A stretch of 64,000 nucleotides of DNA from NCBI GenBank assembly GCA_964432115.1, contig CAYSMC010000033.1, positions 1,123-65,122 of the forward strand, given 5' to 3'. Position numbers and translations under genes: made by a program. Under the pieces are notes generated by a model. That model did not search any database. It was not told the origin of the DNA and was given only the letters and a program-made list of their open reading frames with translations. Below are positions 2,401 through 47,925 of this stretch, piece by piece. The DNA is from an uncultured Pseudomonadales bacterium (GTDB taxonomy: Bacteria; Patescibacteriota; Microgenomatia; UBA1400; PJMF01). Position 1 is the first letter of the stretch. Each line of letters starts with the position of its first letter.

Positions 2401-3897
2401 TTACTTAATATATCTTAATCTACCTTCAACCTGACTTTGAATGTTTTGGTGAGTGCGCAAGTATTCTTCTAGTATTTGTTGGGCAGAAGTGCTAACAACT
2501 TTTGACTCGCCATGTTCTAACAGTTCTTTTTCAGAAATATTTAGATAAGCCTGACTATTACTAAAGTGATAGCCTTGAAGAGTCAGGGTGTAAATTGTTG
2601 TATTGTTAACATTTTTATTATTAATTTTTAAACTGCTCAATTTTTTTTGACCCTCATTGTAAACGGCTTCAACCTCTTTATTGATTTGATAACATTCACC
2701 CTCACTATTGCGATTGCTCGGACGCATAATGTAAGCAAAAATTTGCTTTAATTGTTGACCACTAACTTGAAAACGAGTTAAAGCGTCATCGTAGGGAAAA
2801 CAGGCAATAAAGTCTTTTAATCTTACTAAAGGACCCAGTTCTTTAACCCTGATTGAACCACTACCCACCAACATCACATCTGTTCCACTGGATTGAGTAA
2901 AAGCATCGGCTATTAAATTGCCCAAACTAGTTTCGATTTCTCGCTTGGGGTGGGTCAATTTAGTCGCGGTTTTGCATACTAAAGTATTATATTTTTCATC
3001 AACCTTTTTTTTGAAAGATTGAATAAATTTTTCTAAATCGTGGTCTGGTTCTGCTAAACTTTCATCAATGGGAATTAATTGCCAGTGGTAATCGACAATG
3101 CTGTTGGTGTCGTCATCAACAATAATGTCAAAGCGGCCAATTTGATCAGAACCTACTCCAGCCTGAGCGATTAAAACATTATTAACCATAGCTGGTTCTT
3201 TGAGTACGGTGTGAGAATGGCCACCAATAATCATATCCACACCCCACTCAGGATCCAACAGTTTAGCCAATTTTATATCAGACTCGTAACCAATGTGAGT
3301 TAGTAAAATAGTGAGATCAATGTCATCATTTTTGTAGGCATTGCAAATTTTTCCAACTTCTTGGCTTGCTTCTTCCAAATCAATAAAGCTACCAATTAGT
3401 TGGTCTTGTTTTAAGGAATCCATAATTTTCTCTGTGATAATGCCAGTAAATAAAACATCAAAACCATCCTTTTTTAAAATTAAATAAGGATTCATTAAGC
3501 GTTTGTTATATTTTTTAATGTAGAGATTAGCATTAACAATCGGAAAATTAGCCATTTTTTCTAAAAATAAAAGATGGGGTAAACCATAATCTAATTCATG
3601 ATTGCCTAAAGTAACAACATCAGGCGCCAAATAATTCATAATTTCTATGGTAGAAATACCTTTGTATTGACTGTCGATCAGTGAGCCTTGCAGCATGTCA
3701 CCGGCAATTAAATAAAAAACATTTTTTTCTTCAGCGCGGACTTTATTAATATATCCAGATAAAAGTGCTAAGCCACCCATTAACTTTCCCTTTTTTCCTT
3801 GGACTTCAGCCAGAAAATCACCATGAATGTCATTGGAATGTAAAATGGTAAATTTTTTTAAATTTTTTGGTAGCGCTTTTTTACTGTGTTTTAGCAT
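2401..3897 (-). CDS. bifunctional metallophosphatase / 5'-nucleotidase (UshA/CpdB-like)
   Basis: Calcineurin-like phosphoesterase motifs (HSNDIHGD, GDMLQG, GNHELD, GGHSH) are followed by a C-terminal 5'-nucleotidase substrate-binding domain. Confidence 0.8.
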   Translation of the reverse strand: MLKHSKKALPKNLKKFTILHSNDIHGDFLAEVQGKKGKLMGGLALLSGYINKVRAEEKNVFYLIAGDMLQGSLIDSQYKGISTIEIMNYLAPDVVTLGNHELDYGLPHLLFLEKMANFPIVNANLYIKKYNKRLMNPYLILKKDGFDVLFTGIITEKIMDSLKQDQLIGSFIDLEEASQEVGKICNAYKNDDIDLTILLTHIGYESDIKLAKLLDPEWGVDMIIGGHSHTVLKEPAMVNNVLIAQAGVGSDQIGRFDIIVDDDTNSIVDYHWQLIPIDESLAEPDHDLEKFIQSFKKKVDEKYNTLVCKTATKLTHPKREIETSLGNLIADAFTQSSGTDVMLVGSGSIRVKELGPLVRLKDFIACFPYDDALTRFQVSGQQLKQIFAYIMRPSNRNSEGECYQINKEVEAVYNEGQKKLSSLKINNKNVNNTTIYTLTLQGYHFSNSQAYLNISEKELLEHGESKVVSTSAQQILEEYLRTHQNIQSQVEGRLRYIK

Positions 3898-33595: not shown

Positions 33596-33669
33596 GCGCC
33601 CATAGCTCAGCTGGATAGAGCGTTTGTTTGCGGAACAAAAGGCCAGAGGTTCGAATCCCCTTGGGCGCA
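33596..33669 (+). tRNA. tRNA-Arg, anticodon loop reads UU-GCG-GA (anticodon GCG)
   Basis: Hand-folded cloverleaf: acceptor GCGCCCA/TGGGCGC, D-arm GCTC/GAGC with A20, anticodon stem TTTGT/ACAAA, T-arm with TTCGAAT loop, discriminator A73, and no encoded CCA. Confidence 0.7.
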
Positions 33670-33961: not shown

Positions 33962-34045
33962 GGAAGGGTCGCATAGTGGCTATTGCATCAGCCTCGAAAA
34001 CTGACGCCTTTTTGGGCATCGCGGGTTCGAGTCCCGCCCCTTCCG
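33962..34045 (+). tRNA. tRNA-Ser (anticodon CGA), type II with long variable arm
   Basis: Acceptor GGAAGGG/CCCTTCC, 3-bp D-stem, anticodon loop CT-CGA-AA, long variable arm, T-loop TTCGAGT, and G73. Confidence 0.7.
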
Positions 34046-36664: not shown

Positions 36665-36747
36665 GGAGGTGTCGCATAGCGGTCAATTGCACACGCTTGG
36701 AAAGCGTGAGCCTCGCGGCTTCAAGGGTTCGAATCCCTTCACCTCCG
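36665..36747 (+). tRNA. tRNA-Ser (anticodon GGA), type II
   Basis: Acceptor GGAGGTG/CACCTCC, anticodon stem CACGC/GCGTG, loop TT-GGA-AA, long variable arm, T-loop TTCGAAT, and G73. A TATAAT box lies about 20 nt upstream. Confidence 0.75.
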
Positions 36748-38329: not shown

Positions 38330-40054
38330 ATGTCAACAAAACCATCTTGCTATCAAATAATTTGTCAGCAATGGCAAAAACACAAGTATTTTTTTTCTTT
38401 TTTATTGTTAATTATCTTGGCTATTATTTTAAGATTACCTTTTTTAAGTATTTTTCCACCAGCCATGGTGCAGGATGAAGTGGGCTTGGGGTATTCAGCT
38501 ATCAGTATTGCTGAAACTGGCAAGGATGAATGGGGAGAAACTTATCCTCTATTATTTAAATCATTTGGTGAATATAAATTGCCAGTGTTTGTTTATGTGA
38601 CTGCTATTTTATATAAAATAATTGGCTGGCAACAGGTGTTGCCAAGAATTACTTCTGCCCTGGCCGGTGTAATTTTAGTTTTCTTGACTGTATTATGGGT
38701 TCGACAGCTAACTAAATCCAAAAAATTAGCCTTATTAGCCGGATTAATATTGGCTACTAGTCCTTGGACTATTCATCTCAGCAGAATGGCTTTGGAAAGC
38801 AATTTGGCTTTAGTTTTTTTTATGGCTGCTCTATTGATGATTAGTTCACAAAAATCGTCTTTAAAAGTGATACTGGCTGCCATCTTTTTTAGTTTAAGCA
38901 GTTACACTTATAATGCTTATAAATATTTAGTGATTTTATTTTTAACTTCATACATTGTCGGCATTCTTCTTTTTTATTACAAAAAAATTACAAGTCAAAA
39001 ACAACTCCTAAAAAATCTGCTGGCTATTTTATTAATTTCTAGCTGTTTGTCTTTACTCATCTTTTTTGCCAAAGGAACAACTGTAAGGCTCGATCAAACT
39101 TTTTTATTAAATTCAGAACAACAACTTGGTTTATATAAACATTATGAAAACAATTGTCATCTCGCTCTTAATGCAATTAGTCCCCGTTTAAATGTACTTT
39201 GCAGACTGCAGTACAATAAATTTTCTAGAGCGATACTTATAGTTGTGGACAGTTATACTAAACATTTATCTCCAGGTTTTTATTTTTTTTCTGGAGATAG
39301 TGAACCAGGTAGAAACCCTACCCAAACTGGTCAATTTTATGCTCCACTGTTAGTTTTTTGTTTATTTGGAGTAGTAACTATGATCAAAAATCCAAAAAAA
39401 TATTTACTAATTATTGTTGGTTTTTTAACCGCTCTTTTGCCATCTGCCGTGTCTGGTAATCCTCACGCAATTAGATTATCGGCAGCCATTCCCTTCGTTT
39501 TATTGATGATTATATGGGGTTATCAGTCTGTGCAGAAATTAATCTTACGTAAAAAATTATTTGATTGGCTGTTTGTCTTGTTGATTTTATTATCAACAAT
39601 TTTTTATTCTATAAAATATATGGCTAGTACTTATGTGGCTTGGGAAAATACCGGAACCTATTTATCCTTTGCTAAAAAAATTGCCAAGCTAAGTTATGAC
39701 TATGCCGAGCGAGGTTATGTGGTTTATGCTGATTTTAACCTCTATCCAGAGCCACATATTTATTATGCTTATTGGAATAAAATTGATCCATTAATTGCTC
39801 AGCAATCTTTTGTTAATGTGTTAAATGAAGCAGATGGTTTTTCACGACCTAGACAGTTTGGCGATCAGGTGTTTTTTGAGAAAGGTGATACAGATCTTAT
39901 AAATTGTCAAAGTGATACCATTCCTTTAATTGTTTATTTTAGAAAAGAACCAATTTCGGGTGTTCAGGCTGTGCAAATTATCAGGGACAATGCCAATATA
40001 TATGATTTTGCTTATGTTTATGAAAGTTGGCAATTTTGTTCAATTGAGAATTAA
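38330..40054 (+). CDS. GT-C fold glycosyltransferase (PMT/ArnT-like, GT39/GT83 family)
   Basis: About 11 TM helices with a DE motif in the first extracytoplasmic loop (MVQDEVGLGYSA...GKDEWGETYP), which is characteristic of ArnT/PMT-type lipid-linked sugar transferases. Confidence 0.6.
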   Translation: MSTKPSCYQIICQQWQKHKYFFSFLLLIILAIILRLPFLSIFPPAMVQDEVGLGYSAISIAETGKDEWGETYPLLFKSFGEYKLPVFVYVTAILYKIIGWQQVLPRITSALAGVILVFLTVLWVRQLTKSKKLALLAGLILATSPWTIHLSRMALESNLALVFFMAALLMISSQKSSLKVILAAIFFSLSSYTYNAYKYLVILFLTSYIVGILLFYYKKITSQKQLLKNLLAILLISSCLSLLIFFAKGTTVRLDQTFLLNSEQQLGLYKHYENNCHLALNAISPRLNVLCRLQYNKFSRAILIVVDSYTKHLSPGFYFFSGDSEPGRNPTQTGQFYAPLLVFCLFGVVTMIKNPKKYLLIIVGFLTALLPSAVSGNPHAIRLSAAIPFVLLMIIWGYQSVQKLILRKKLFDWLFVLLILLSTIFYSIKYMASTYVAWENTGTYLSFAKKIAKLSYDYAERGYVVYADFNLYPEPHIYYAYWNKIDPLIAQQSFVNVLNEADGFSRPRQFGDQVFFEKGDTDLINCQSDTIPLIVYFRKEPISGVQAVQIIRDNANIYDFAYVYESWQFCSIEN

Positions 40055-40931: not shown

Positions 40932-40943
40932 TATCCCATAATA

Positions 40944-40972
40944 TTGACAATTAATAATTATAAATATATAAT
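40944..40972 (+). promoter_or_regulatory. consensus sigma70-type promoter TTGACA-N17-TATAAT inside a shared 18-nt motif ATCCCATAATATTGACAA
   Basis: Read directly: TTGACA 40944-40949, 17-nt spacer, TATAAT 40967-40972. It lies about 40 nt upstream of the ATG at 41011. Confidence 0.55.
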
Positions 40973-41010: not shown

Positions 41011-41688
41011 ATGAAAAAAATAATTTCTTACCTTTTAATAGTGATCGGTCTTTTTCTATTAGCTATAAATGTAGCTAATGCTAGAGAGTGTCACACTGTT
41101 TATGGTGGTGGTGAAGTCTGTGAAAACGGTGACATTAGTTTGGACAAAAAAGTTTTTAATCCCGAAGCTAATGAATATTGGGATAATATTGCTGCTAGTT
41201 CTTACACTTTTGCTCCTAATCAAGAAGTAAAATTTAGACTACGTATTAAAAATATTGCTGACGTTGAAGTCGATGGCGTTCGTTTGGAAGACGATTTTGC
41301 TCGTTTAGTTGATTATATGGTTTACATCGGCGCCGATGGCGAAAGTTATCCAATTGAGTTTGAAGACAATGTGCTCAAATTTGATTTTGATGATGTCGCT
41401 GCTGGTCAAGAAATTACCGTGTATTTTAACGCTCATTTTAAAGCCGAAAGTGAATTACCAGTTGGGACTACTTGTATCACTAATAAAGCTAAAGTTTATT
41501 CCAAAGAAGATGATGTAAGCGACAGCGATTATGCCAGTTTCTGTGTCAAAGCAGATGAGGGGCAAATTATTAGTGAAGTTACTCCAGATACTGGTTTTGA
41601 TTTAAGCACTATTTTAGCTCTCGAGGCTGTAGCCTTGGCTGGTTTAGGTGCTTTTGCCCTAACAAAAGCTAAGAAAATTAGTAAATAA
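41011..41688 (+). CDS. cell-surface protein with a sortase sorting signal (TPDTG motif + hydrophobic segment + basic tail)
   Basis: Signal peptide MKKIISYLLIVIGLFLLAINVANA. C-terminus EVTPDTGFDLSTILALEAVALAGLGAFALTKAKKISK matches the LPXTG-like tripartite sorting signal. It sits next to the sortase gene. Confidence 0.55.
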   Translation: MKKIISYLLIVIGLFLLAINVANARECHTVYGGGEVCENGDISLDKKVFNPEANEYWDNIAASSYTFAPNQEVKFRLRIKNIADVEVDGVRLEDDFARLVDYMVYIGADGESYPIEFEDNVLKFDFDDVAAGQEITVYFNAHFKAESELPVGTTCITNKAKVYSKEDDVSDSDYASFCVKADEGQIISEVTPDTGFDLSTILALEAVALAGLGAFALTKAKKISK

Positions 41689-41712
41689 TTGTTTTAATTA
41701 AAAATGAAAAAA

Positions 41713-41739
41713 CCCTTCTTTTACAGAAGGGTTTTTTTT
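41713..41739 (+). terminator. Rho-independent terminator (CCCTTCT-TTTAC-AGAAGGG + T8)
   Basis: 7-bp GC-containing stem, 5-nt loop and TTTTTTTT, immediately after the stop of 41011..41688. Confidence 0.6.
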
Positions 41740-41818
41740 AAAATAAAAGAAACATGTGTGAGGCTTAATTATTTATTGTTTAGCCTGGAAAGGAATCTCA
41801 ATTTAACATCCCATAATA

Positions 41819-41847
41819 TTGACAAAAATGACTTTATTTGATATACT
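41819..41847 (+). promoter_or_regulatory. second copy of the shared motif, with promoter TTGACA-N17-TATACT, heading a roughly 340-nt leader before gene 42195
   Basis: ATCCCATAATATTGACAA is repeated exactly at 41807-41824. -35 at 41819-41824 and -10 at 41842-41847. Confidence 0.5.
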
Positions 41848-42194
41848 TTTACATACTTATCAAATCTTTTTATTAGAGAACAGATTTTGACATTCCAATC
41901 TTTTTTCCCAACCCCTCGTGTCGAAAATTGTTCTCTACTTGAAAGAGTAGAAGAAGGAGCTCTTAAGTAAGGTCTTAAAACCTGAGAATCGCTTTCAGAG
42001 TTTTGAGTCACTTACAAAAAGAGACGCACCTTAACAAGGAGGAAAAGAATGCCCTAGGCATTTTGGTCCAGCTTTTGTGACAATCATTGCAATGTGGTTG
42101 TTAGAGAAGCTGGTCCAATTGTGCCGAAAGGCAAGGGACGAGCCGGTGGCCACTGACGTGCAGTGGAAACTTTCGCGCTAAAAAGGAGAATGCC

Positions 42195-43130
42195 ATGCGC
42201 AAAAAAATGTTTATTTTGGTTTGTGTACTTTTAGTGGCGAGCTTGCTCGCCGCCTGCAAACCGCAGGTTACCGTCAATGTTCCAGAGCAAAAACCACCAG
42301 ATGTTGTGGTAAATGTTCCAGAACAGGAACCTCCGTCAATCAATGTGGAGGTGATTGTTCCCAAAACATCAAAAGAAGCAGAACCGGTTGAAGAACCAGA
42401 GTTGGTTGAAGAACCCGAGCTCGTTGAAGCTTCTGAAGCCATAGTCGTCCAAAATTGGGCTAAATGCCCATTGGAGGACAAAGGCGTTCGCCTCGAATTT
42501 GATGGTCCGAATGATGGTGAATTTTACCTCATTTCTGGCCTCAGCGAGGATTTTGCAGTCTATGAAGGCTGTAATTTCCTATTCGAGGGCCGTCAATTTT
42601 TGACCGAAGAACACCATATTTGGGTCTTCCAAGATCCAGATTGGCAATTGAAGGTTCGAGAGGGTAGCCTCTGGGCTTATCCCTCAGACTGGAACATGGT
42701 TGACTTCTCAACTGAGAAGCCGCCGATCGTAGCCGAGTTCGTAACCGCGAAGCGGCAAAATCAGTTGATTAACGGCTATGACTGGGTAATTTTTGTCCAC
42801 GACGGTGAGATTCTTTATGAATTTCCCGTTGGGCAAGATACGCCCAAAGTAGTTTTACCCGACAACGCCGACTTCACAGAACCCGAACCACTCGTGGTTC
42901 AAGGCGTCTGGGATGGTGAGATGTTTGATGCCTCAATTGGGGCAGAAAATACAATCACCGTTTCGATGTTGGATGGACAATTGTTTTATTGGGCGAATGC
43001 CCAAGACAACATTGTCTACAAAACCGTTGAAGCCTGGATCATGCCGTCAGCATGGTCGCTCGAACAGATTGAGAGTTGGGCAGAACAAAATTTTCCCAAC
43101 CAAAGTTTGGTCGAATACAACGGCGGCTAA
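42195..43130 (+). CDS. lipoprotein (lipobox LLAAC) with tandem VNVPEQxPP / EEPELV repeats; GC-rich relative to surroundings
   Basis: Signal peptide plus Cys lipobox MRKKMFILVCVLLVASLLAAC. GC is clearly elevated versus neighbours. It is followed by a 9-bp GC hairpin at 43144-43175. Confidence 0.55.
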   Translation: MRKKMFILVCVLLVASLLAACKPQVTVNVPEQKPPDVVVNVPEQEPPSINVEVIVPKTSKEAEPVEEPELVEEPELVEASEAIVVQNWAKCPLEDKGVRLEFDGPNDGEFYLISGLSEDFAVYEGCNFLFEGRQFLTEEHHIWVFQDPDWQLKVREGSLWAYPSDWNMVDFSTEKPPIVAEFVTAKRQNQLINGYDWVIFVHDGEILYEFPVGQDTPKVVLPDNADFTEPEPLVVQGVWDGEMFDASIGAENTITVSMLDGQLFYWANAQDNIVYKTVEAWIMPSAWSLEQIESWAEQNFPNQSLVEYNGG

Positions 43131-43228
43131 TCTTTCCTCCTTGCCCACGTCTACCTCTAGAAAAGAAGACGTGGGTAAAGCAAAGCTCATCAAATAGCAT
43201 TGGTGATTTTTGCTTTACTAAAAAAATC

Positions 43229-44608
43229 ATGAAATTAACTAAGAAAACCTACCAGCGTTTTAATGATCCAGCTACTTTACTGCTAGTATCTAGTTTTCCG
43301 CTGCAGGGTGAGGAAATTGCCAAGCGCAATGCGGTTTCACGTTATAGCAAATTTTTACTTGAGCATTTTCCAGATCAGCAACAAGTGGTGGTGCTGTGTG
43401 AGCAGGTCACAGGTCAAAATAATCAAGCTTATTTGCTCAAAGATAATATTTTAGTGATTCCTACTTACACTATCAATTCACTGAAACTTTTTGCTCAATT
43501 AAACCAGCAATTTAAGCGTTTTCCTCAAGTTAAAAACATTCTTTTACAATTTGAATTTAGTTTATTTGGTAAAGAAATTATTACCTTTTTATTGCCCTTT
43601 TTCTTTATTTGGCAGCGCTTGTTTGGTAAAAAGGTTTATACCATGCTTCATCAGGTGGTTTTGGATTTATCTACTTTATCAGGACAGGTAGCTTTGCCTG
43701 CCAGTTCAATCAAAACCTTGTTTTTTAATGGGGTGATGCGTCTTTTTTACAGTATTTTAGGCTTAGCTAATCAACAGGTTTTAGTTCATGATCAATTTTT
43801 AGCTGACAAATTACGTTTCTTAGTGCCTCAGCGCAAGTTAGTCATTATTCCTCATGGAATCAATGGTTATCGGGGCTTTAAACAGCTACAAAAAGATAGT
43901 TTTAAGAGAAGTTTGGGTTGTAAAGCTAGCGATCAATTAGTTTTAGCTTATGGTTATCATTCTTGGTATAAAGGTACGGATTGGTTAATAAAAAACTTTT
44001 TGCGTTTAAAAAAATCTGGTCAGTTAGCAAAAAACACCAAGTTATTGTTAGCTGGAGATGTGGCTCCTACTCAAAAAAATCAGCTTCATTTACAAGATTT
44101 TTACCATAATCTCAGCAAGTTGATTGAAAACAATGGTCAAGACATTATTCACACTGGTTTTGTACCAGAAAAAGAGGTGGCGAAGATCTTTGCTATTGCC
44201 GATTTGGTGGTTTTTCCTTATCGCGCGCGCATGTCTAGTTCTGGAGCTTTAGCTTTAGCGCTGCAATATCGCAAGCCTTTTATTTGTTCCAAGTTTTTTG
44301 CCGAAAATTTAGTGACTGATGAGTTGAAAAAACTGGCTGAAAAAAACAAAATCGCTACTGATCGATTGCTGTTTGATTTAAATTATTCTTCTTTTACTAA
44401 AGTTTTCTTAAATAATTGGCAGAATCAATCTCTAAGTAAAAAAATGACTGCTTTTGGTCGCCAGGTATCCAAAGCTCATGAGTGGAGCGAGGTTGCTTTG
44501 CAATATTTAACTGTTATTGAGCAAGCTAAAAAACAAGCCGTCAGAGCTACTAAGGTGCAAAAAGTTTACTTTTGGCAAAGACCAGCTTATTCCCAAGCTG
44601 GCACTTAA
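43229..44608 (+). CDS. GT-B fold glycosyltransferase (GT4-like)
   Basis: C-terminal GT4-type nucleotide-sugar-binding region (LLLAGDVAP...GFVPEKEVAKIFAIADLVVFPY...SSSGALALALQYRKPFICS). Start chosen at the first ATG after the upstream gene. Confidence 0.6.
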   Translation: MKLTKKTYQRFNDPATLLLVSSFPLQGEEIAKRNAVSRYSKFLLEHFPDQQQVVVLCEQVTGQNNQAYLLKDNILVIPTYTINSLKLFAQLNQQFKRFPQVKNILLQFEFSLFGKEIITFLLPFFFIWQRLFGKKVYTMLHQVVLDLSTLSGQVALPASSIKTLFFNGVMRLFYSILGLANQQVLVHDQFLADKLRFLVPQRKLVIIPHGINGYRGFKQLQKDSFKRSLGCKASDQLVLAYGYHSWYKGTDWLIKNFLRLKKSGQLAKNTKLLLAGDVAPTQKNQLHLQDFYHNLSKLIENNGQDIIHTGFVPEKEVAKIFAIADLVVFPYRARMSSSGALALALQYRKPFICSKFFAENLVTDELKKLAEKNKIATDRLLFDLNYSSFTKVFLNNWQNQSLSKKMTAFGRQVSKAHEWSEVALQYLTVIEQAKKQAVRATKVQKVYFWQRPAYSQAGT

Positions 44609-44634: not shown

Positions 44635-47600
44635 ATGAAATTTTTTTCTCTATTAAAAAAAGTCTGGCCCCAGCTTTTTTTATTTCTTCTAGTAACCCTT
44701 CTTGTTTATCTGAATTTTACTCCAGCTACTTATTTAATTGGCTGGGATAATCTACAGGTTGAACTTGATCTCGGCATTAATCTAGAAAGAGCTTTTAATG
44801 TCTCTTGGCAGGAATATCAGGGCTTAGGTTTATTAGGAGGCATGGGACATGGAGCAGATCTAGTCAGGCAGATTTTGTTGTGGCCTTTTTCGCTTATCTT
44901 AAAGCAAAATTGGCTGCGTTATTTTTGGAATTATTTGGCTTTATTGTCTGGTGTTTGGGGGGCTTATAGTTTATTTGCTTATTTATTAAAGAATAATAAA
45001 CAATATCAACTTTTGGCTTTACTCGGCGCTAGTTTTTATCTATTAAATCTTGGCACGGTGCAAAATTTCTACGTTACTTTTGAGCCTTTTGCCGCTTTTT
45101 TTGCTTTTTTTCCCTGGTTAATTTATTACTTTTTAACTTATCTTGAACGATCCAACAAAAAAAATCTGCTGGGCTTTATCGCTTTTTCTTTATTAGGAAC
45201 AATTTTTGGCTATGTGCAGACGGTTTTTATTGTTTATCTGCTAGTTTTGTTATTAATCATGGCTTTTTTTCTGTTCAAGAAAAAAATTACTTGGAAAAAA
45301 GTAGGCTTAATTTTATTAGTGGTTTTTTTGACCAATGCTTTTTGGTTATTGCCGGTGGTTTATTTCACGATTTTTGCAAGTGCCACCACCCTAGCAGCCA
45401 AGATTAACTTGATGTCTACTGAGGTGACCTTTTTAAAAAATAACCAGTTTGGTAGTTTTACTAATTTGGCCACACTTAAAGGTTTTTGGCTTGATCATAC
45501 TGATTTTAACCAGTGGGGCAACAGTGTTTATTTAATGGATGTTTGGAAAAGCCATTTAAATCAGGGATGGCTGGCAGTTTTAACTTGGCTTTATTTTGCC
45601 TTATTAGTTCTTGGTATTGGATCATTATTTTTGGCTAAAAAGAGCCAGTCGCATTTGCGTCACAGCCATTTGTCAATTTTAGTGGTTTTTTTGTTTACGG
45701 CTTTTATTTTGGCCGGTTCCAATCCACCCTTAGCTTTTGTTTATGACTTTTTGCGCCAAGTGGTGCCTTTATTTGGTCAAATATTTCGCTCAGCCTTTAC
45801 CAAATGGATCGTTCCCTACAGCTTATTTTATAGCTTGTTGTTGACTTTTGGTTTAGCTTTTCTTTTTTCTTTTTTCAAAAAGAAAATCTGGCAATTTCTT
45901 ATAGCCGGCGCATTTTTCTTATCTTTAATTTTTTATTCCTTACCTAGTTTTACTGGTAATTTCTTTTATTCTCGCTTGCGAGTGAGTGTTCCCGATGCCT
46001 ATTTTCAAGTGTTTGATTATTTTAAAAATGAGGCGCCAGAGAGTAGTCGGATTGCTAATTTGCCTCAGCATACTTTTTATGGTTGGCAATGGAATGATTG
46101 GGGTTATCGTGGCTCTGGTTTTATTTGGTACGGGATTAAACAGCCAATTTTAGATCGGGCTTTTGATGTCTGGAGTGAGGCCAGCGAGCGCTATTATTGG
46201 CAATTACAGGCAGCGCTAGATAAAAAGGATATTGCTGCATTGGAAAATGTTTTAGCTCAATATGCAGTTGATTATTTGCTACTTGATGAATCAATTATTA
46301 ATCGCAATACCAAAAAGCCTTTTAATTATCAGGCACTCAAAGAGTTTTTACAAAGTGCAGACAATATCGAATTAATTGAGCAATATGATTTTATAAGTAT
46401 TTATCGGGTTAATAATCAAGCACAAGAAAAGAGCCAGGACTTTATTACTTTGTATAAAGATTTGCCTTTGCTAGCCAATGACTATCGTTTTGCTTGGTCT
46501 GATCAAGCCTTTAGTGACTTTGGCCATTATTTAACTATGGATAATCATAATTTCTCTATTGAAGATCTGAATATTGATGCCATTTATCCCTTTCCCGCCC
46601 TGTTTAGCAACCATTGGCAGGAGGATTTAGAATTTTCTTTAACCAAAGATGACAGCTACTTTTATCTAAGTAGTTTGAAAGACAGCCCAAGCGCCGATTT
46701 TCAATTGCAGTTAGCAGATTTGATGAAATCTGAAGAGCAGTTGCCTTTTCGCTTAACTTGGGTAGTGGAGGATAATTTGGCGAAACTCAATTTTAGCTTG
46801 CTAGCCCCAGAAATTATTGATAGCCAGCAAGTAACTCATTTTACTCTAGAGAAAGAATTTATTTTTGATGCGCGATTGTGTATGGCTAGCGAAACTTGTT
46901 ATATCAACATCAATAATCAGCTACTTACTCAATTAGGTGAGAGTGGTGAACTGGATTTATTATTAAGCACCAGTGTTCCCAACAGCATTGCCCTTAGTAG
47001 CGAGCAAAAAACTGCTTATTTCGACTATGCTTTTTTTGATTTAAATCTTTACAATTTGATCGTTGAGCAAAAACCCTATCGGGGAGATAGCCAGCTAAAA
47101 GTTAAAATCCCCAAAGTCATCTTGCAAAGCAATGTGTTAGTTAGTGAACTTAATCTTTTTGAGCCAGTCGATTGTCGGCCACTGCAAGAAGGTTTGGTGG
47201 CTAAAGAACAGTGGGATGAGGGGACTTTTTATCAGGCGGTTGGCACTAGTGTTTGTGATCATTTCTATTTGGCTAATTTAGCTCATAATTTAGGCTATCT
47301 GATTAAGCTAGATGCGCAGAATTTAGCTAGTTTGCCAGCCATTTTTGCGGTGCAGTCAGACAGCATTGGTCGTAGTCCTTTAGAGACCTATTTAAGTGAG
47401 GGAGTTAATTACCACATATTGCCTCCGACTGAGGATTTCAATCAAGGTTACACCCTGTATTTTTCCACTGATTCTTATGGTTGGGAAATCAATAATAACC
47501 TAATCAAGTCTGTGGAAGTTTTCTTTTTCCCCTACAATTTCCTAAAAGAATTGCGCTGGCAAAAAACTCAAGCACCGGTTTTGCCCAATCAGTTGAGTAA

Positions 47601-47925
47601 TTGTGATTTTAGCGTTAACAAAAAAGCTCTTTGGTTATATCAAATTGATTTGCCAACTAATTGTGATGCTCAATATTTAAGCTTAGCTCAGGCTTATGAC
47701 GGGGCTTGGTTGGCTTACCAAGATGGGCAAAGACTTAAACAAGCCAAAGTAAATAATTGGGCCAATGCTTGGTTCTTAGACAATCAAGACAGTGAAAGTC
47801 GAATTTATCTTTTCTTTTGGCCACAATTACTTCAATATTTTGGCTTTTTACTGATCGTTATTAGTTTATTTTTCTTATTGCTAAAATTGCGAAAAAAGCG
47901 ACCAGATCGTTTAAAAAGCAATTAA
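44635..47925 (+). CDS. very large polytopic membrane protein (about 14 TM N-terminal region + roughly 600-aa extracytoplasmic domain + C-terminal TM); putative GT-C/YfhO-like glycan polymerase or transferase
   Basis: 1096-aa ORF. The hydrophobic N-terminal half resembles GT-C family membrane glycosyltransferases. No specific family recognised. Confidence 0.55.
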   Translation: MKFFSLLKKVWPQLFLFLLVTLLVYLNFTPATYLIGWDNLQVELDLGINLERAFNVSWQEYQGLGLLGGMGHGADLVRQILLWPFSLILKQNWLRYFWNYLALLSGVWGAYSLFAYLLKNNKQYQLLALLGASFYLLNLGTVQNFYVTFEPFAAFFAFFPWLIYYFLTYLERSNKKNLLGFIAFSLLGTIFGYVQTVFIVYLLVLLLIMAFFLFKKKITWKKVGLILLVVFLTNAFWLLPVVYFTIFASATTLAAKINLMSTEVTFLKNNQFGSFTNLATLKGFWLDHTDFNQWGNSVYLMDVWKSHLNQGWLAVLTWLYFALLVLGIGSLFLAKKSQSHLRHSHLSILVVFLFTAFILAGSNPPLAFVYDFLRQVVPLFGQIFRSAFTKWIVPYSLFYSLLLTFGLAFLFSFFKKKIWQFLIAGAFFLSLIFYSLPSFTGNFFYSRLRVSVPDAYFQVFDYFKNEAPESSRIANLPQHTFYGWQWNDWGYRGSGFIWYGIKQPILDRAFDVWSEASERYYWQLQAALDKKDIAALENVLAQYAVDYLLLDESIINRNTKKPFNYQALKEFLQSADNIELIEQYDFISIYRVNNQAQEKSQDFITLYKDLPLLANDYRFAWSDQAFSDFGHYLTMDNHNFSIEDLNIDAIYPFPALFSNHWQEDLEFSLTKDDSYFYLSSLKDSPSADFQLQLADLMKSEEQLPFRLTWVVEDNLAKLNFSLLAPEIIDSQQVTHFTLEKEFIFDARLCMASETCYININNQLLTQLGESGELDLLLSTSVPNSIALSSEQKTAYFDYAFFDLNLYNLIVEQKPYRGDSQLKVKIPKVILQSNVLVSELNLFEPVDCRPLQEGLVAKEQWDEGTFYQAVGTSVCDHFYLANLAHNLGYLIKLDAQNLASLPAIFAVQSDSIGRSPLETYLSEGVNYHILPPTEDFNQGYTLYFSTDSYGWEINNNLIKSVEVFFFPYNFLKELRWQKTQAPVLPNQLSNCDFSVNKKALWLYQIDLPTNCDAQYLSLAQAYDGAWLAYQDGQRLKQAKVNNWANAWFLDNQDSESRIYLFFWPQLLQYFGFLLIVISLFFLLLKLRKKRPDRLKSN

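Follow-up and report, generated by a model that had tools for sequence, protein, structure and literature searches.

The window, that is, the whole 64-kb stretch of DNA analyzed here, carries on its forward strand (to which all coordinates refer) an open reading frame of 311 amino acids at 42195..43130. Judging by its signal peptide and lipobox pattern, its product is a bacterial lipoprotein exposed at the surface. The protein starts with MRKKMFILVCVLLVASLLAAC followed by K. Residues 1–21 make up the signal peptide, including a lipobox, LAAC, that conforms to the rule [LVI][ASTVI][GAS]C at positions −3 to +1 within MRKKMFILVCVLLVASLLAAC; the column of the lipobox cysteine, Cys21, is nearly invariant among 21 homologs. 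A repeat-rich Pro/Glu linker (residues 22–88) leads to a conserved C-terminal domain of about 220 amino acids without a recognised fold. The lipobox and the VNVPEQxPP and EEPELV repeats ascribed to this ORF by an initial annotation of the DNA are indeed present.

A dedicated promoter is found upstream (41808..41847). It consists of an extended −35 element, ATCCCATAATATTGACA (41808-41824), then a 17-nt spacer, and a −10 element, TATACT (41842-41847), with a TG upstream of the −10. The arrangement TTGACA-17-TATACT at 41819-41847 matches 11 of 12 consensus positions, in agreement with the promoter previously placed at 41819, and transcription is predicted to start near 41854. The 17-mer promoter element is found in exactly two copies in the window; the second, at 40933-40949, precedes a pilin-like gene, and the paired copies (pilin-like gene and leader) are kept in nearly all related loci. 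In loci L013 and L025, too, this promoter precedes the leader RNA; there, as in the window, the only promoter-like site is the one upstream of the RNA. Because of this, and because no terminator is predicted between the leader RNA and the ORF in the window, it is plausible that leader, ORF and 3′ UTR belong to one transcription unit.

A structured leader RNA

The leader is about 340 nt long and contains at least 11 helices. The segment 41854-42215 folds to −124.6 kcal/mol, compared with −87.0 ± 4.9 kcal/mol in shuffled sequences (z = −7.66). The earlier proposal that a long structured cis-RNA precedes a surface lipoprotein gene is supported.

The 5′ domain (41871..42043; covariance model R1, 181 bits) opens with P1, a long hairpin at 41877-41934 whose base extends to 41874/41937 and which contains the inverted repeat AGAGAACAG/TTGTTCTCT noticed earlier. 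P2 is a GNRA hairpin, CUACUU-GAAA-GAGUAG (41935-41950), followed by a purine-rich junction, GAAGAAGGAG (41950-41959). P3 is a long-range helix, CUCUU/AAGAG (41960-41964 / 42019-42023), and encloses P3a (41967-41970 / 42012-42015), P4 (41974-41981 / 42000-42007) and the hairpin P5 (41982-41998). Further downstream lies an invariant core, GCACCUUAAC-AAGGAGGAAAAG (42026..42047), identical in 20 leader sequences, which includes a CYUUAAY motif (42029-42035) and a Shine-Dalgarno (SD)-like sequence, CAAGGAGGAAA (42035-42045). The 3′ domain (42048..42194; model R2, 171 bits over 42024-42194) comprises the hairpin P6, ATGCC-CTA-GGCAT (42048-42062); P7, GGTCCAGCTT/AAGCTGGTCC (42065-42076 / 42105-42116), whose arms are not perfect complements because of a conserved U.U mismatch at the third pair; P8 (42078-42086 / 42095-42103); P9, a GNRA hairpin, UGCC-GAAA-GGCA (42122-42133); and P10, CCACUG-ACGUG-CAGUGG (42150-42166), which contains the previously reported repeat CACTG-ACGTG-CAGTG. 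The GAAAGGCAAGGGACGAGCCGG stretch spans the GNRA loop and the 3′ arm of P9 as well as the junction that follows, and the SD of the lipoprotein gene, AAGGAG, is found at 42183-42188. Two additional pairings are candidates: a pseudoknot joining the loop of P1 (CUCGU) to ACGAG at 42139-42143, and an extra helix GAAGGAGC/GCACCUU.

Conservation of the fold was measured on covariance-model alignments, which lean towards the modelled structure; the latter was curated by hand and then tested. On alignment A8 of the 5′ domain, 92.5% of the cells are paired (77% in shuffles, 43–52% in slid controls), and 31 of 41 pairs change on both sides, compared with 5–10 in slid controls. The corresponding figures for the 3′ domain (alignment A10) are 94.5% paired cells (84% in shuffles, 32–55% in slid controls) and 21 of 36 pairs changed on both sides (3–13 in slid controls). 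Hence, the leader is conserved in related loci, and inverted repeats that had been noticed in a single sequence correspond to real covarying helices (P1, P6, P7 and P10). Partly different registers were obtained when RNAalifold was run on different alignments (the base of P1 vs that of P2; a local hairpin vs P3). The leaders of L011, L017 and L022 were not detected by R1 or R2, and their alignment was made by MAFFT and by eye only. A conserved upstream ORF following the SD-like core was also considered and rejected: it has 2 codons in the window and 14–24 in other loci, and its AUG is missing in group B.

When the whole window was searched with the 4,227 models of Rfam 15 at the gathering threshold, only 3 tRNAs were detected. 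At E ≤ 10, a search of 41600-43300 yielded nothing above 22 bits in 41850-42195; the residue was miRNA-type noise and a 14.5-bit rpsL_pseudo match. The leader thus matches no known riboswitch or other Rfam family, in line with the failure of the initial annotation to assign a class, and by this comparison it is a new RNA family.

Elements downstream of the stop codon

A post-stop element, UCUUUCCUCCUUG (43131..43143), begins 1–3 nt past the stop codon. It is followed by two hairpins that covary on a structure-agnostic alignment. Hairpin 1, CCCACGUCU...AGACGUGGG (43144..43175; z = −4.0), had been predicted from the window as a 3′ GC hairpin; it proved to be real and to covary in relatives, with A-U to G-C exchanges, and is conserved across 15 loci in a MAFFT alignment. 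It does not have the makeup of an intrinsic terminator: no U-run comes after it, and the next sequence is UAAAGCAAAG. Hairpin 2, UAAAGCAAAG-CUCAUCAA...UUGGUGA-UUUUUGCUUUA (43176..43217), is 17 bp long and has an outer stem made of an A-tract and a U-tract, so that its U-run is inside its own 3′ arm; 99.6% of the cells are paired, and 6 pairs are changed on both sides. By its sequence, hairpin 2 may be a leaky terminator. A glycosyltransferase-type ORF designated GT1 starts at 43229, 11 nt past hairpin 2, without an SD.

Complementarity between the leader core and the post-stop element

The SD-like segment of the core (42035-42045) is complementary to UUUCCUCCUUG (43133-43143), within the post-stop element. 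We refer to these segments as the 5′ and 3′ strands of a clamp. Complementarity is kept through five sequence classes: ACAAGGAGGAAA / UUUCCUCCUUG; AAGGAGGAGAA / UUCUCCUCCUU; ACAGGUGAGAAAA / UUUUCUCAC(U)CUGU; AAUCGAGGC / GCCUCGAUU; and UAGGCAUACAG / CUGUAUGUCUA, the last with one G.U pair.

The cognate duplex of the window has a predicted energy of −18.4 kcal/mol (z = −3.6), and cognate duplexes across loci range from −11 to −19 kcal/mol (z from −2.3 to −7). Among 120 permutations of the strands, the cognate assignment ranks first, with −83.3 kcal/mol, compared with −50.5 kcal/mol for the best full mismatch. Prediction of duplexes between the whole leader and the whole 3′ region gave sprawling, meaningless structures, and a search for the longest Watson-Crick complement was used instead. 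When the whole leader was compared with the 100 nt downstream of the stop codon, without pre-selection of sites, the clamp sites were the longest complement in 13 of 16 loci. The complement in a single locus (8–11 nt) is only modestly above chance, as shuffled sequences give a mean of 7.5 and a maximum of 11.

Covariation of the clamp was scored in an alignment of 12 nt, since a fixed register of 16 nt overran the stop codon. Both sides change in 11 of 12 pairs, against 4.1 in shuffles, a count in which the 3′ register was chosen for each sequence; the covariation score is 0.435, compared with 0.167 in shuffles and no more than 0.18 in slid controls. The case for the clamp is made by its constant position and by about five independent sequence classes, three of which are represented by one or two loci each. 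No clear clamp was found in the alternative cassette of L063 (z = −0.9). In L011, L017, L021 and L022 the clamp strands are neither SD-like nor anti-SD-like and do not pair with the functional SD; the post-stop elements of these four loci are not complementary to their own AAGGAGG-type SDs.

A GC-rich slot for exchangeable lipoproteins

In 500-nt windows, GC content reaches 46.6–47.4% at 42001-43000 and is about 35% elsewhere in the 64-kb window. The lipoprotein gene has 47.1% GC and a GC3 of 0.48. Compared with the 46 other ORFs of at least 200 amino acids in the window (35.5 ± 2.7% GC; GC3 0.265 ± 0.038), these values correspond to z scores of about +4.3 and +5.6, respectively, and both are the maximum of the window. 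The early impression that gene and leader are GC-richer than their surroundings is thus borne out, and the atypical base composition often taken as a sign of a genomic island holds when measured quantitatively.

The GC excess consists of a U-to-C shift at third codon positions only. C-ending codons amount to 0.42 vs 0.19 in two-fold families and to 0.36 vs 0.18 in four-fold families, and G-ending codons stand at 0.31 vs 0.24. This shift has the look of codon selection, or of biased conversion, operating at the slot rather than of foreign ancestry, and such codon usage suggests that the lipoprotein is highly expressed. Ribosomal-protein genes with which to calibrate codon bias are absent from the window.

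A metagenome scan with a 17-mer returned 68 loci, which were sorted by nhmmer into about 13 real homologs and chance matches. Across about 25 related loci, a conserved order is observed: sortase, pilin-like gene, leader, lipoprotein, GT1, a 1,100-aa protein and a VirD4-like ATPase, with identical orientation in all. The leader is absent from a distant family member, P0034. Position and GC excess are the same in the relatives, including loci whose lipoprotein is only 45–50% identical; in every locus the lipoprotein gene has 42–56% GC, compared with 32–41% in the rest of the locus. Flanking proteins are 73–85% identical and the lipoprotein 46–68%, and their relationships are incongruent.

Exchange of the lipoprotein can be seen between L030 and L071, which are 99.2% identical over 1,740 nt ending at the lipobox Cys codon and then encode unrelated mature domains. 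The swap junction is thus the Cys codon itself, and the exchanged segment includes the downstream glycosyltransferase (GT) gene. From these alignments, and as the initial annotation had anticipated, the gene behaves as a cassette: mature domains are exchanged behind the same promoter, leader and signal peptide. In L063, where an unrelated lipoprotein occupies the same slot, its GC3 is 0.51, whereas the co-swapped gene GT2 has a GC3 of 0.21 and only 29% GC.

That the gene and its leader are a recent island transferred horizontally from a GC-richer donor, a reading in the spirit of the horizontally acquired cassette of the initial annotation, would explain why GC and GC3 are the highest in the window and why the gene has an incongruent phylogeny and diverges faster than its flanks. 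We consider this explanation extremely unlikely. Its location is neither patchy nor variable, as position, synteny and GC excess are constant in every relative; no mobility genes flank the lipoprotein gene; and homologs were detected neither in phages nor in plasmids or viral contigs. A donor could not be found either: none of 20 close and 67 remote homologs belongs to a GC-rich lineage, and no GC-rich lineage with close homologs and matching codon usage was found among 1.84 billion representative proteins. Furthermore, the bias is specific to C-ending codons, and the gene in the slot is rich in GC regardless of family, unlike the AT-rich GT2 exchanged together with it. On the evidence of these comparisons, the GC excess is a property of the slot and not a sign of recent foreign origin.

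Discussion

We are mildly inclined to view the locus as an mRNA frame, specific to one small clade of Patescibacteria, in which an exchangeable surface lipoprotein is expressed. For the complementarity, the reading that we prefer, with a confidence just above even, is a clamp between 5′ and 3′ UTRs that would close the ORF into a loop of about 1.1 kb, as described in the hbs mRNA of Bacillus subtilis. Beyond the patterns observed (structure and covariation of the leader, complementarity and covariation of the clamp strands, synteny, cassette swap and codon usage), we infer that both clamp elements reside on one transcript and pair as RNA. By analogy with hbs, stabilization of the mRNA and high expression would be the effects of the clamp.

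In hbs, a 14-bp duplex between 5′ and 3′ UTRs modulates cleavage by RNase Y and couples stability with translation (Braun, Durand and Condon 2017, PMC5737220). In the locus under study, too, the UTRs are complementary over about 10 bp or more, and this complementarity is conserved. There are differences, however: sequence or structural homology with hbs is lacking, the leader has about three times the size, the 3′ strand lies right next to the stop codon, and the ORF inside the loop is exchangeable. In addition, pairing is backed here by phylogenetic covariation rather than by experiment, and an effect on nucleases is extrapolated from hbs. Another precedent is icaR of Staphylococcus aureus, where a C/U-rich, anti-SD-like motif in the 3′ UTR pairs with a purine-rich, SD-like sequence in the same mRNA's 5′ UTR (Ruiz de los Mozos et al. 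2013, PMC3868564). The motifs are alike in the window. However, the icaR motif pairs with the functional SD, which leads to repression and RNase III cleavage (PMC3868564); here, the partner (42035-42045) is a decoy-like core located about 150 nt upstream of the functional SD (42183-42188), and four lineages have strands that resemble neither an SD nor an anti-SD.

Other systems offer partial resemblances. The leaders of S-layer genes are long 5′ UTRs that stabilize abundant surface-protein mRNAs by means of simple 5′ hairpins of about 100 nt. A strong promoter, a long structured leader and an envelope protein are common to both, with abundance deduced here from codon bias only; at least 11 helices and a 3′ partner set our locus apart. 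In its size, its several covarying helices, its GNRA loops and its limited phylogenetic range, the leader is reminiscent of OLE, ROOL, GOLLD, raiA and riboswitch aptamers. Unlike the large noncoding RNAs of Rfam, the leader is fixed in a 5′ UTR, one of its strands pairs beyond the ORF, and none of the 4,227 models matches it. As in rRNA processing stalks, complementary segments bracket a long functional RNA, and a gene for an intervening-sequence protein is inserted in L021; in contrast with those stalks, the segments here enclose a protein-coding ORF, their helix is short, and processing by RNase III is hypothetical.

A tentative mechanism can be proposed as follows. A strong dedicated promoter would drive synthesis of the leader of about 340 nt, the ORF, and a 3′ UTR containing the post-stop element and two hairpins. 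The core, 3′ of CYUUAAY, would pair over 9–13 bp with the element located 1–8 nt past the stop codon, and this pairing would therefore close the ORF and the 3′ domain of the leader in a loop of about 1.1 kb, bringing the structured 5′ domain and the 3′ hairpins together. Protection from endo- and exonucleases, of the kind described for B. subtilis hbs, may be conferred on the mRNA by the clamp together with the structures next to it. Stability of the mRNA may be coupled to translation, since the helix has to be opened by a ribosome that reaches the stop codon and terminates. The outcome would be very high expression, independent of the ORF, and the conserved RNA-coding flanks may double as homology arms for swaps of the mature domain. 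The role of the large 5′ domain is left unaccounted for by this explanation.

A bolder speculation, which we regard as rather improbable, is that one composite split RNA, with the ORF in its large loop, is built from the 5′ domain, the clamp and both 3′ hairpins. Such a structure might serve as a portable, ORF-independent expression slot, closing the mRNA for protection or for ribosome recycling in the manner of viral genome cyclisation; its coding DNA might act as recombination arms for surface-antigen cassettes, and conversion or selection at the slot might produce the excess of C at third positions and of GC.

Alternative explanations must also be weighed. The leader could be a sensor (a new riboswitch class, or a leader that binds a protein or tRNA) that switches expression on or off by attenuation or SD masking, with the 5′-3′ complementarity as part of the expression platform; for instance, the anti-SD-like post-stop element might compete for SD-like sequences. 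Its large, conserved and covarying fold, with two GNRA loops and an invariant core, does recall ornate aptamers, and the core and post-stop element of classes A and B resemble an SD and an anti-SD, as in icaR (PMC3868564). In L013, moreover, the interval from the RNA to the SD contains a terminator-like hairpin (CCCCGG-CGCA-CCGGGG, then AUUUUU), which from its sequence fits regulation better than pure stabilization. Even so, we find a sensor rather unlikely: Rfam gives no match; neither a terminator nor a helix sequestering the SD is present in the window or in most loci; the genes downstream are unrelated surface proteins rather than metabolic or transport functions suggestive of a ligand; and the clamp strands of L011, L017, L021 and L022, which resemble neither SD nor anti-SD, cannot pair with a functional SD. 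In the minimum-energy fold of the window the SD lies outside any stable helix, with at most two of its nucleotides engaged in a short 2-bp pairing. Of the riboswitch or attenuator control envisaged in the initial annotation, the conserved structured 5′ UTR domain holds (z = −7.7); as for a candidate expression platform, L013 alone has a terminator-like hairpin in this position, and the window has no terminator and no stable SD-sequestering helix. A different possibility is that the leader, in whole or in its 5′ domain only, constitutes a noncoding RNA in its own right (a ribonucleoprotein scaffold or a catalyst), which shares the promoter and which processing at the clamp helix might set free, as happens with rRNA. 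Its size and complexity are on a par with those of large bacterial noncoding RNAs, and the 5′ domain is a closed unit that ends exactly at the clamp strand; the terminator-like site of L013 is located past the RNA; and the gene found inside the bracketed segment of L021 encodes a 23S-rRNA-intervening-sequence protein, a type of gene typical of rRNA insertions. (This gene is Avd-like and raised the idea of a diversity-generating retroelement, DGR, which was dropped.) We nevertheless judge an independent RNA to be quite improbable, because the 3′ strand of the clamp lies beyond the ORF and thereby ties the RNA to the mRNA. Besides, the RNA is always directly upstream of the surface-protein ORF of the same locus, in one copy per locus with none elsewhere in the 64-kb window or in the searched flanks of related loci, and most loci have no terminator after it.

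A reading at the DNA level would make the core and the post-stop element inverted repeats that bound an invertible or mobile cassette, used for phase variation or site-specific exchange. Inverted repeats of 11–13 bp do bracket exactly the GC-rich variable segment, replacement has occurred between near-identical strains, and ends recognised by one recombinase would also co-evolve. This reading is nonetheless very unlikely in our opinion. The conserved neighbourhood contains no recombinase or transposase, and orientation is the same in all of the roughly 25 loci; the swap junction is the lipobox codon and not the repeats, with the downstream GT gene included. Pairing in L021 needs a G.U, which in DNA is a mismatch, and the surroundings are full of strand-specific RNA helices that contain G.U pairs.

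To our knowledge, only a handful of interactions between 5′ and 3′ UTRs have been described in bacteria, each by experiment in a single species. In the clamp reading favored here, comparative sequence alone makes such an interaction visible, in five sequence versions and inside a large RNA fold that had not been catalogued. Likewise, we are aware of almost no information on gene expression in Patescibacteria (the candidate phyla radiation), or on the surface proteins that mediate their episymbiosis. If the locus is indeed an expression slot, it would explain a recurrent compositional anomaly otherwise misread as horizontal transfer. It would also point to the likely dominant surface antigen of the host cells, and would provide a compact natural module of promoter, leader and tail for high-level expression. 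As far as sequence comparison can tell, this previously undescribed RNA frame is likely a novel means of high-level expression for an exchangeable surface protein.

A structured leader RNA precedes the lipoprotein gene

The window has a GC content of ~35% and a gene content of the Patescibacteria genome type, and encodes a sortase, a pilin-like sortase substrate, GT-C and GT1 glycosyltransferases and a VirD4-like ATPase. The lipoprotein ORF (42195-43130, + strand) specifies 311 aa in three parts: a predicted lipoprotein signal peptide (MRKKMFILVCVLLVASLLAAC), a repeat-rich Pro/Glu linker and a conserved C-terminal domain of ~220 aa. No recognisable fold or family was found for it. A predicted promoter upstream of the leader (TTGACA-17-TATACT with TG; 41819-41847, + strand) matches 11 of 12 consensus positions.

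The leader folds at -124.6 kcal/mol, compared with -87.0 ± 4.9 kcal/mol for shuffled sequences (z = -7.66). The initial annotation could not confidently place it in a known riboswitch class, and Rfam gave no match to the leader at the gathering threshold or at E ≤ 10, and the sole Rfam matches in the window are three tRNA genes (33596-33669, 33962-34045 and 36665-36747), none of which borders the lipoprotein cassette. The leader counts as a new structured RNA; literature searches turned up no description of it or of the locus.

When metagenomes were scanned with the invariant 17-mer GCACCTTAACAAGGAGG and filtered with nhmmer, ~20 distinct leader sequences were recovered, which form two subgroups and some outliers. 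Each locus has a single copy, viral contigs have none, and nucleotide identity is 82-87% across loci whose proteins are far more diverged. The structure was curated by hand, and covariance models of the 5' and 3' domains (R1 and R2) were built on it. It begins with P1, a long hairpin, and P2, a GNRA hairpin (CUACUY-GAAA-GAGUAG), followed by a purine-rich junction and the long-range helix P3, which reads CUCUU/AAGAG in group A, CUUUU/AAAAG in group B and CUUCC/GGAAG in locus L025, and has 11 bp in L066. P3a, P4 and P5 lead to an invariant core, after which come P6, P7, P8, a GNRA hairpin (P9) and P10. Every inverted repeat listed in the initial annotation corresponds to one of these helices.

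Paired cells amount to 92.5% in the 5' domain (shuffles, 77%; slid controls, 43-52%) and 94.5% in the 3' domain (84%; 32-55%). Both sides have changed in 31 of 41 pairs of the 5' domain (5-10 in slid controls) and in 21 of 36 of the 3' domain (3-13), and the covariation score of the 5' domain is 0.55 against at most 0.16 in slid controls; the alignments were fitted to the models and are thus biased towards structure, but the margins over controls are still large.

A two-codon mini-ORF (AUG CCC UAG) is present in P6, 7 nt past the SD-like core (42036-42058). It was rejected as a conserved uORF, as its length in relatives ranges between 2 and 24 codons and group B lacks the AUG.

The leader core is complementary to an element past the stop codon

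The leader core (42035-42045), just 3' of a CYUUAAY motif, has its reverse complement in a post-stop element (43133-43143), so that a "clamp" can be drawn across the ORF. Complementarity is kept while both sequences change. Core and post-stop strands are ACAAGGAGGAAA and UUUCCUCCUUG in class A, AAGGAGGAGAA and UUCUCCUCCUU in class B (L013, L025), ACAGGUGAGAAAA and UUUUCUCAC(U)CUGU in L017 and L011, AAUCGAGGC and GCCUCGAUU in L022, and UAGGCAUACAG and CUGUAUGUCUA, with one G.U pair, in L021. The 3' strand always begins 1-8 nt past the stop codon.

Cognate duplexes have energies of -11 to -19 kcal/mol (z from -2.3 to -7). In a cross-matrix, cognate pairing was the best, or was equalled only by the close classes A/B and L011/L017; the cognate assignment was also the best of 120 permutations (-83.3, versus -50.5 for the best derangement). 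When sites were not pre-selected, a search of the whole leader against the 100 nt past the stop codon placed the longest perfect complement on the clamp sites in 13 of 16 loci; the same sites pair in the other three, where the helix has a bulge or a G.U pair or overlaps the stop codon. With the 3' register picked per sequence, 84.5% of cells are paired (70.2% in shuffles). Changes on both sides affect 11 of 12 pairs (4.1 in shuffles, 1-6 in slid controls) and the covariation score is 0.435 (at most 0.18 in controls), a covariation that rests on only ~5 independent sequence classes.

The region between the stop codon and the GT1 gene is conserved in all loci, and contains two hairpins besides the post-stop element; this 3' UTR probably forms one unit with the leader. 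Hairpin 1 (43144-43175, + strand; CCCRCGUC...GACGYGGG) is the 3' hairpin of the initial annotation; it is real (z = -4.0) and is not a canonical terminator. Hairpin 2 (region 43176-43231) has 17 bp, with an outer stem in which an A-tract pairs with a U-tract and a U-run inside its own 3' arm; it might act as a leaky terminator and in this way set the lipoprotein:GT ratio. In a plain MAFFT alignment, 97.7% of cells are paired (39-52% in slid controls) and 10 pairs have changed on both sides (0-2 in slid controls). The GT1 gene (43229-44608) starts 11 nt past hairpin 2 and lacks a Shine-Dalgarno sequence.

The best reading of these sequence patterns is that the clamp would be an RNA-level pairing that closes the mRNA. 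A reading as DNA-level inverted repeats is disfavoured, as no recombinase is found in the conserved neighbourhood, all loci show a single orientation, one clamp class requires a G.U pair, and the cassette swap described below has its junction elsewhere. Another possible view is that the leader is an independent non-coding RNA freed by processing. In its favour, locus L021 has a gene for a 96-aa 23S rRNA intervening-sequence protein (3373-3663; PF05635, 92.5 bits; DGR Avd proteins belong to this family) inserted inside the clamp-closed segment, past the leader core and ahead of the lipoprotein homolog.

The leader could also act as a sensing riboswitch or an attenuator, a less likely reading than closure of the mRNA. 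Group B leaders (L013, 5946-5961; L025, ~2940-2990) have additional GC-rich hairpins in the stretch from P10 to the SD, and the one that follows the RNA in L013 fits the terminator pattern (CCCCGG-CGCA-CCGGGG, then AUUUUU), which hints at attenuation in the L013 lineage only.

The slot is GC-rich and its content can be replaced

Close homologs of the lipoprotein number 20 in a search of 5.8 billion clusters, and a deep profile search detected 67 relatives among 1.84 billion representatives; all sequences compared are metagenomic. Among GTDB species representatives just 4 have it, Paceibacterota and Woesebacteria MAGs included. The MAG contigs L019 and L021 are titled 'uncultured Pseudomonadales bacterium', yet have a Patescibacteria-type locus with 34-39% GC; these labels are probably wrong. 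The synteny of the gene is the same in every recovered locus, and a non-coding gap of 500-1,075 nt precedes it. A ~45-nt GC-rich element, GAGGGAATGTCCGAAGTGGAGRCGGAGGACG, recurs within the long intergenic region of L013 (4925-5620) and is present once in L023 (~500-545).

The compositional anomaly noted in the initial annotation is real: the lipoprotein gene has the highest GC (47.1% versus 35.5 ± 2.7%) and GC3 (0.48 versus 0.265 ± 0.038) among the 47 ORFs of the window. A recent horizontal acquisition is not supported, as synteny and GC excess are shared by every recovered locus (slot gene, 42-56%; surroundings, 30-41%) and a search for phage or plasmid homologs found none. In the window gene the excess comes from third positions that have shifted from U to C: C-ending codons reach 0.42 in 2-fold Y families and 0.36 in 4-fold families (other window ORFs, 0.19 and 0.18), and G-ending codons 0.31 in 2-fold R families (0.24). 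The GC-rich island (~42050-43180) matches the clamp-bracketed segment.

Within the main group, flanking proteins are 73-85% identical and the lipoprotein only 46-68%, with incongruent relationships. Loci L030 (reverse strand, 1-1740) and L071 share 99.2% identity over 1,740 nt, comprising the pilin-like gene, promoter, leader and signal peptide, and similarity ends completely at the lipobox Cys codon. Past this point, L030 and L063 encode an unrelated mature domain (170-180 aa) and, after it, a GT2 in place of GT1; the downstream 1,100-aa membrane protein is retained. This difference is a strain-level cassette replacement (in L063, at 363-938). Because the unrelated slot gene is likewise GC-rich (54.8%, GC3 0.51), the co-swapped GT2 is AT-rich (29% GC, GC3 0.21) and the shift is from U to C at third positions, GC-richness goes with the slot. 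Selection on codons in a very highly expressed gene may underlie it, or else biased conversion at a recombination hotspot; it does not indicate foreign ancestry.

A possible role in surface-protein expression

If the mRNA is closed, the clamp would join the 170-nt 5' domain of the leader to the 3' hairpins. A ribosome terminating at the stop codon would have to melt it, and melting could couple translation to stability or ribosome recycling. The closest precedent is hbs, in which a 14-bp 5'/3'-UTR interaction in a highly structured leader alters the access of RNase Y and links stability with translation (PMC5737220). The clamp strands of classes A and B mimic SD and anti-SD as in icaR (PMC3868564); unlike in icaR, however, the conserved 5' partner is not the functional SD, and four lineages lack such mimicry.

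An extended -35 element, the 17-mer ATCCCATAATATTGACA, has exactly two copies in the 64 kb (40933-40949 and 41808-41824); the first lies ahead of the pilin-like sortase-substrate gene, the second ahead of the leader. This arrangement is kept in nearly all related loci, and suggests that two surface-protein genes have in common a dedicated regulator, sigma factor or UP-like element. A 574-aa PMT_2/PMT protein is encoded upstream (38330-40054), and the 1,096-aa conserved membrane protein downstream (44635-47925) has a sub-threshold N-terminal PMT_2 (GT-C) match. The locus resembles an island for surface glycosylation and a sortase pilus; the slot proteins may become glycosylated at their P/T/E-rich linkers.
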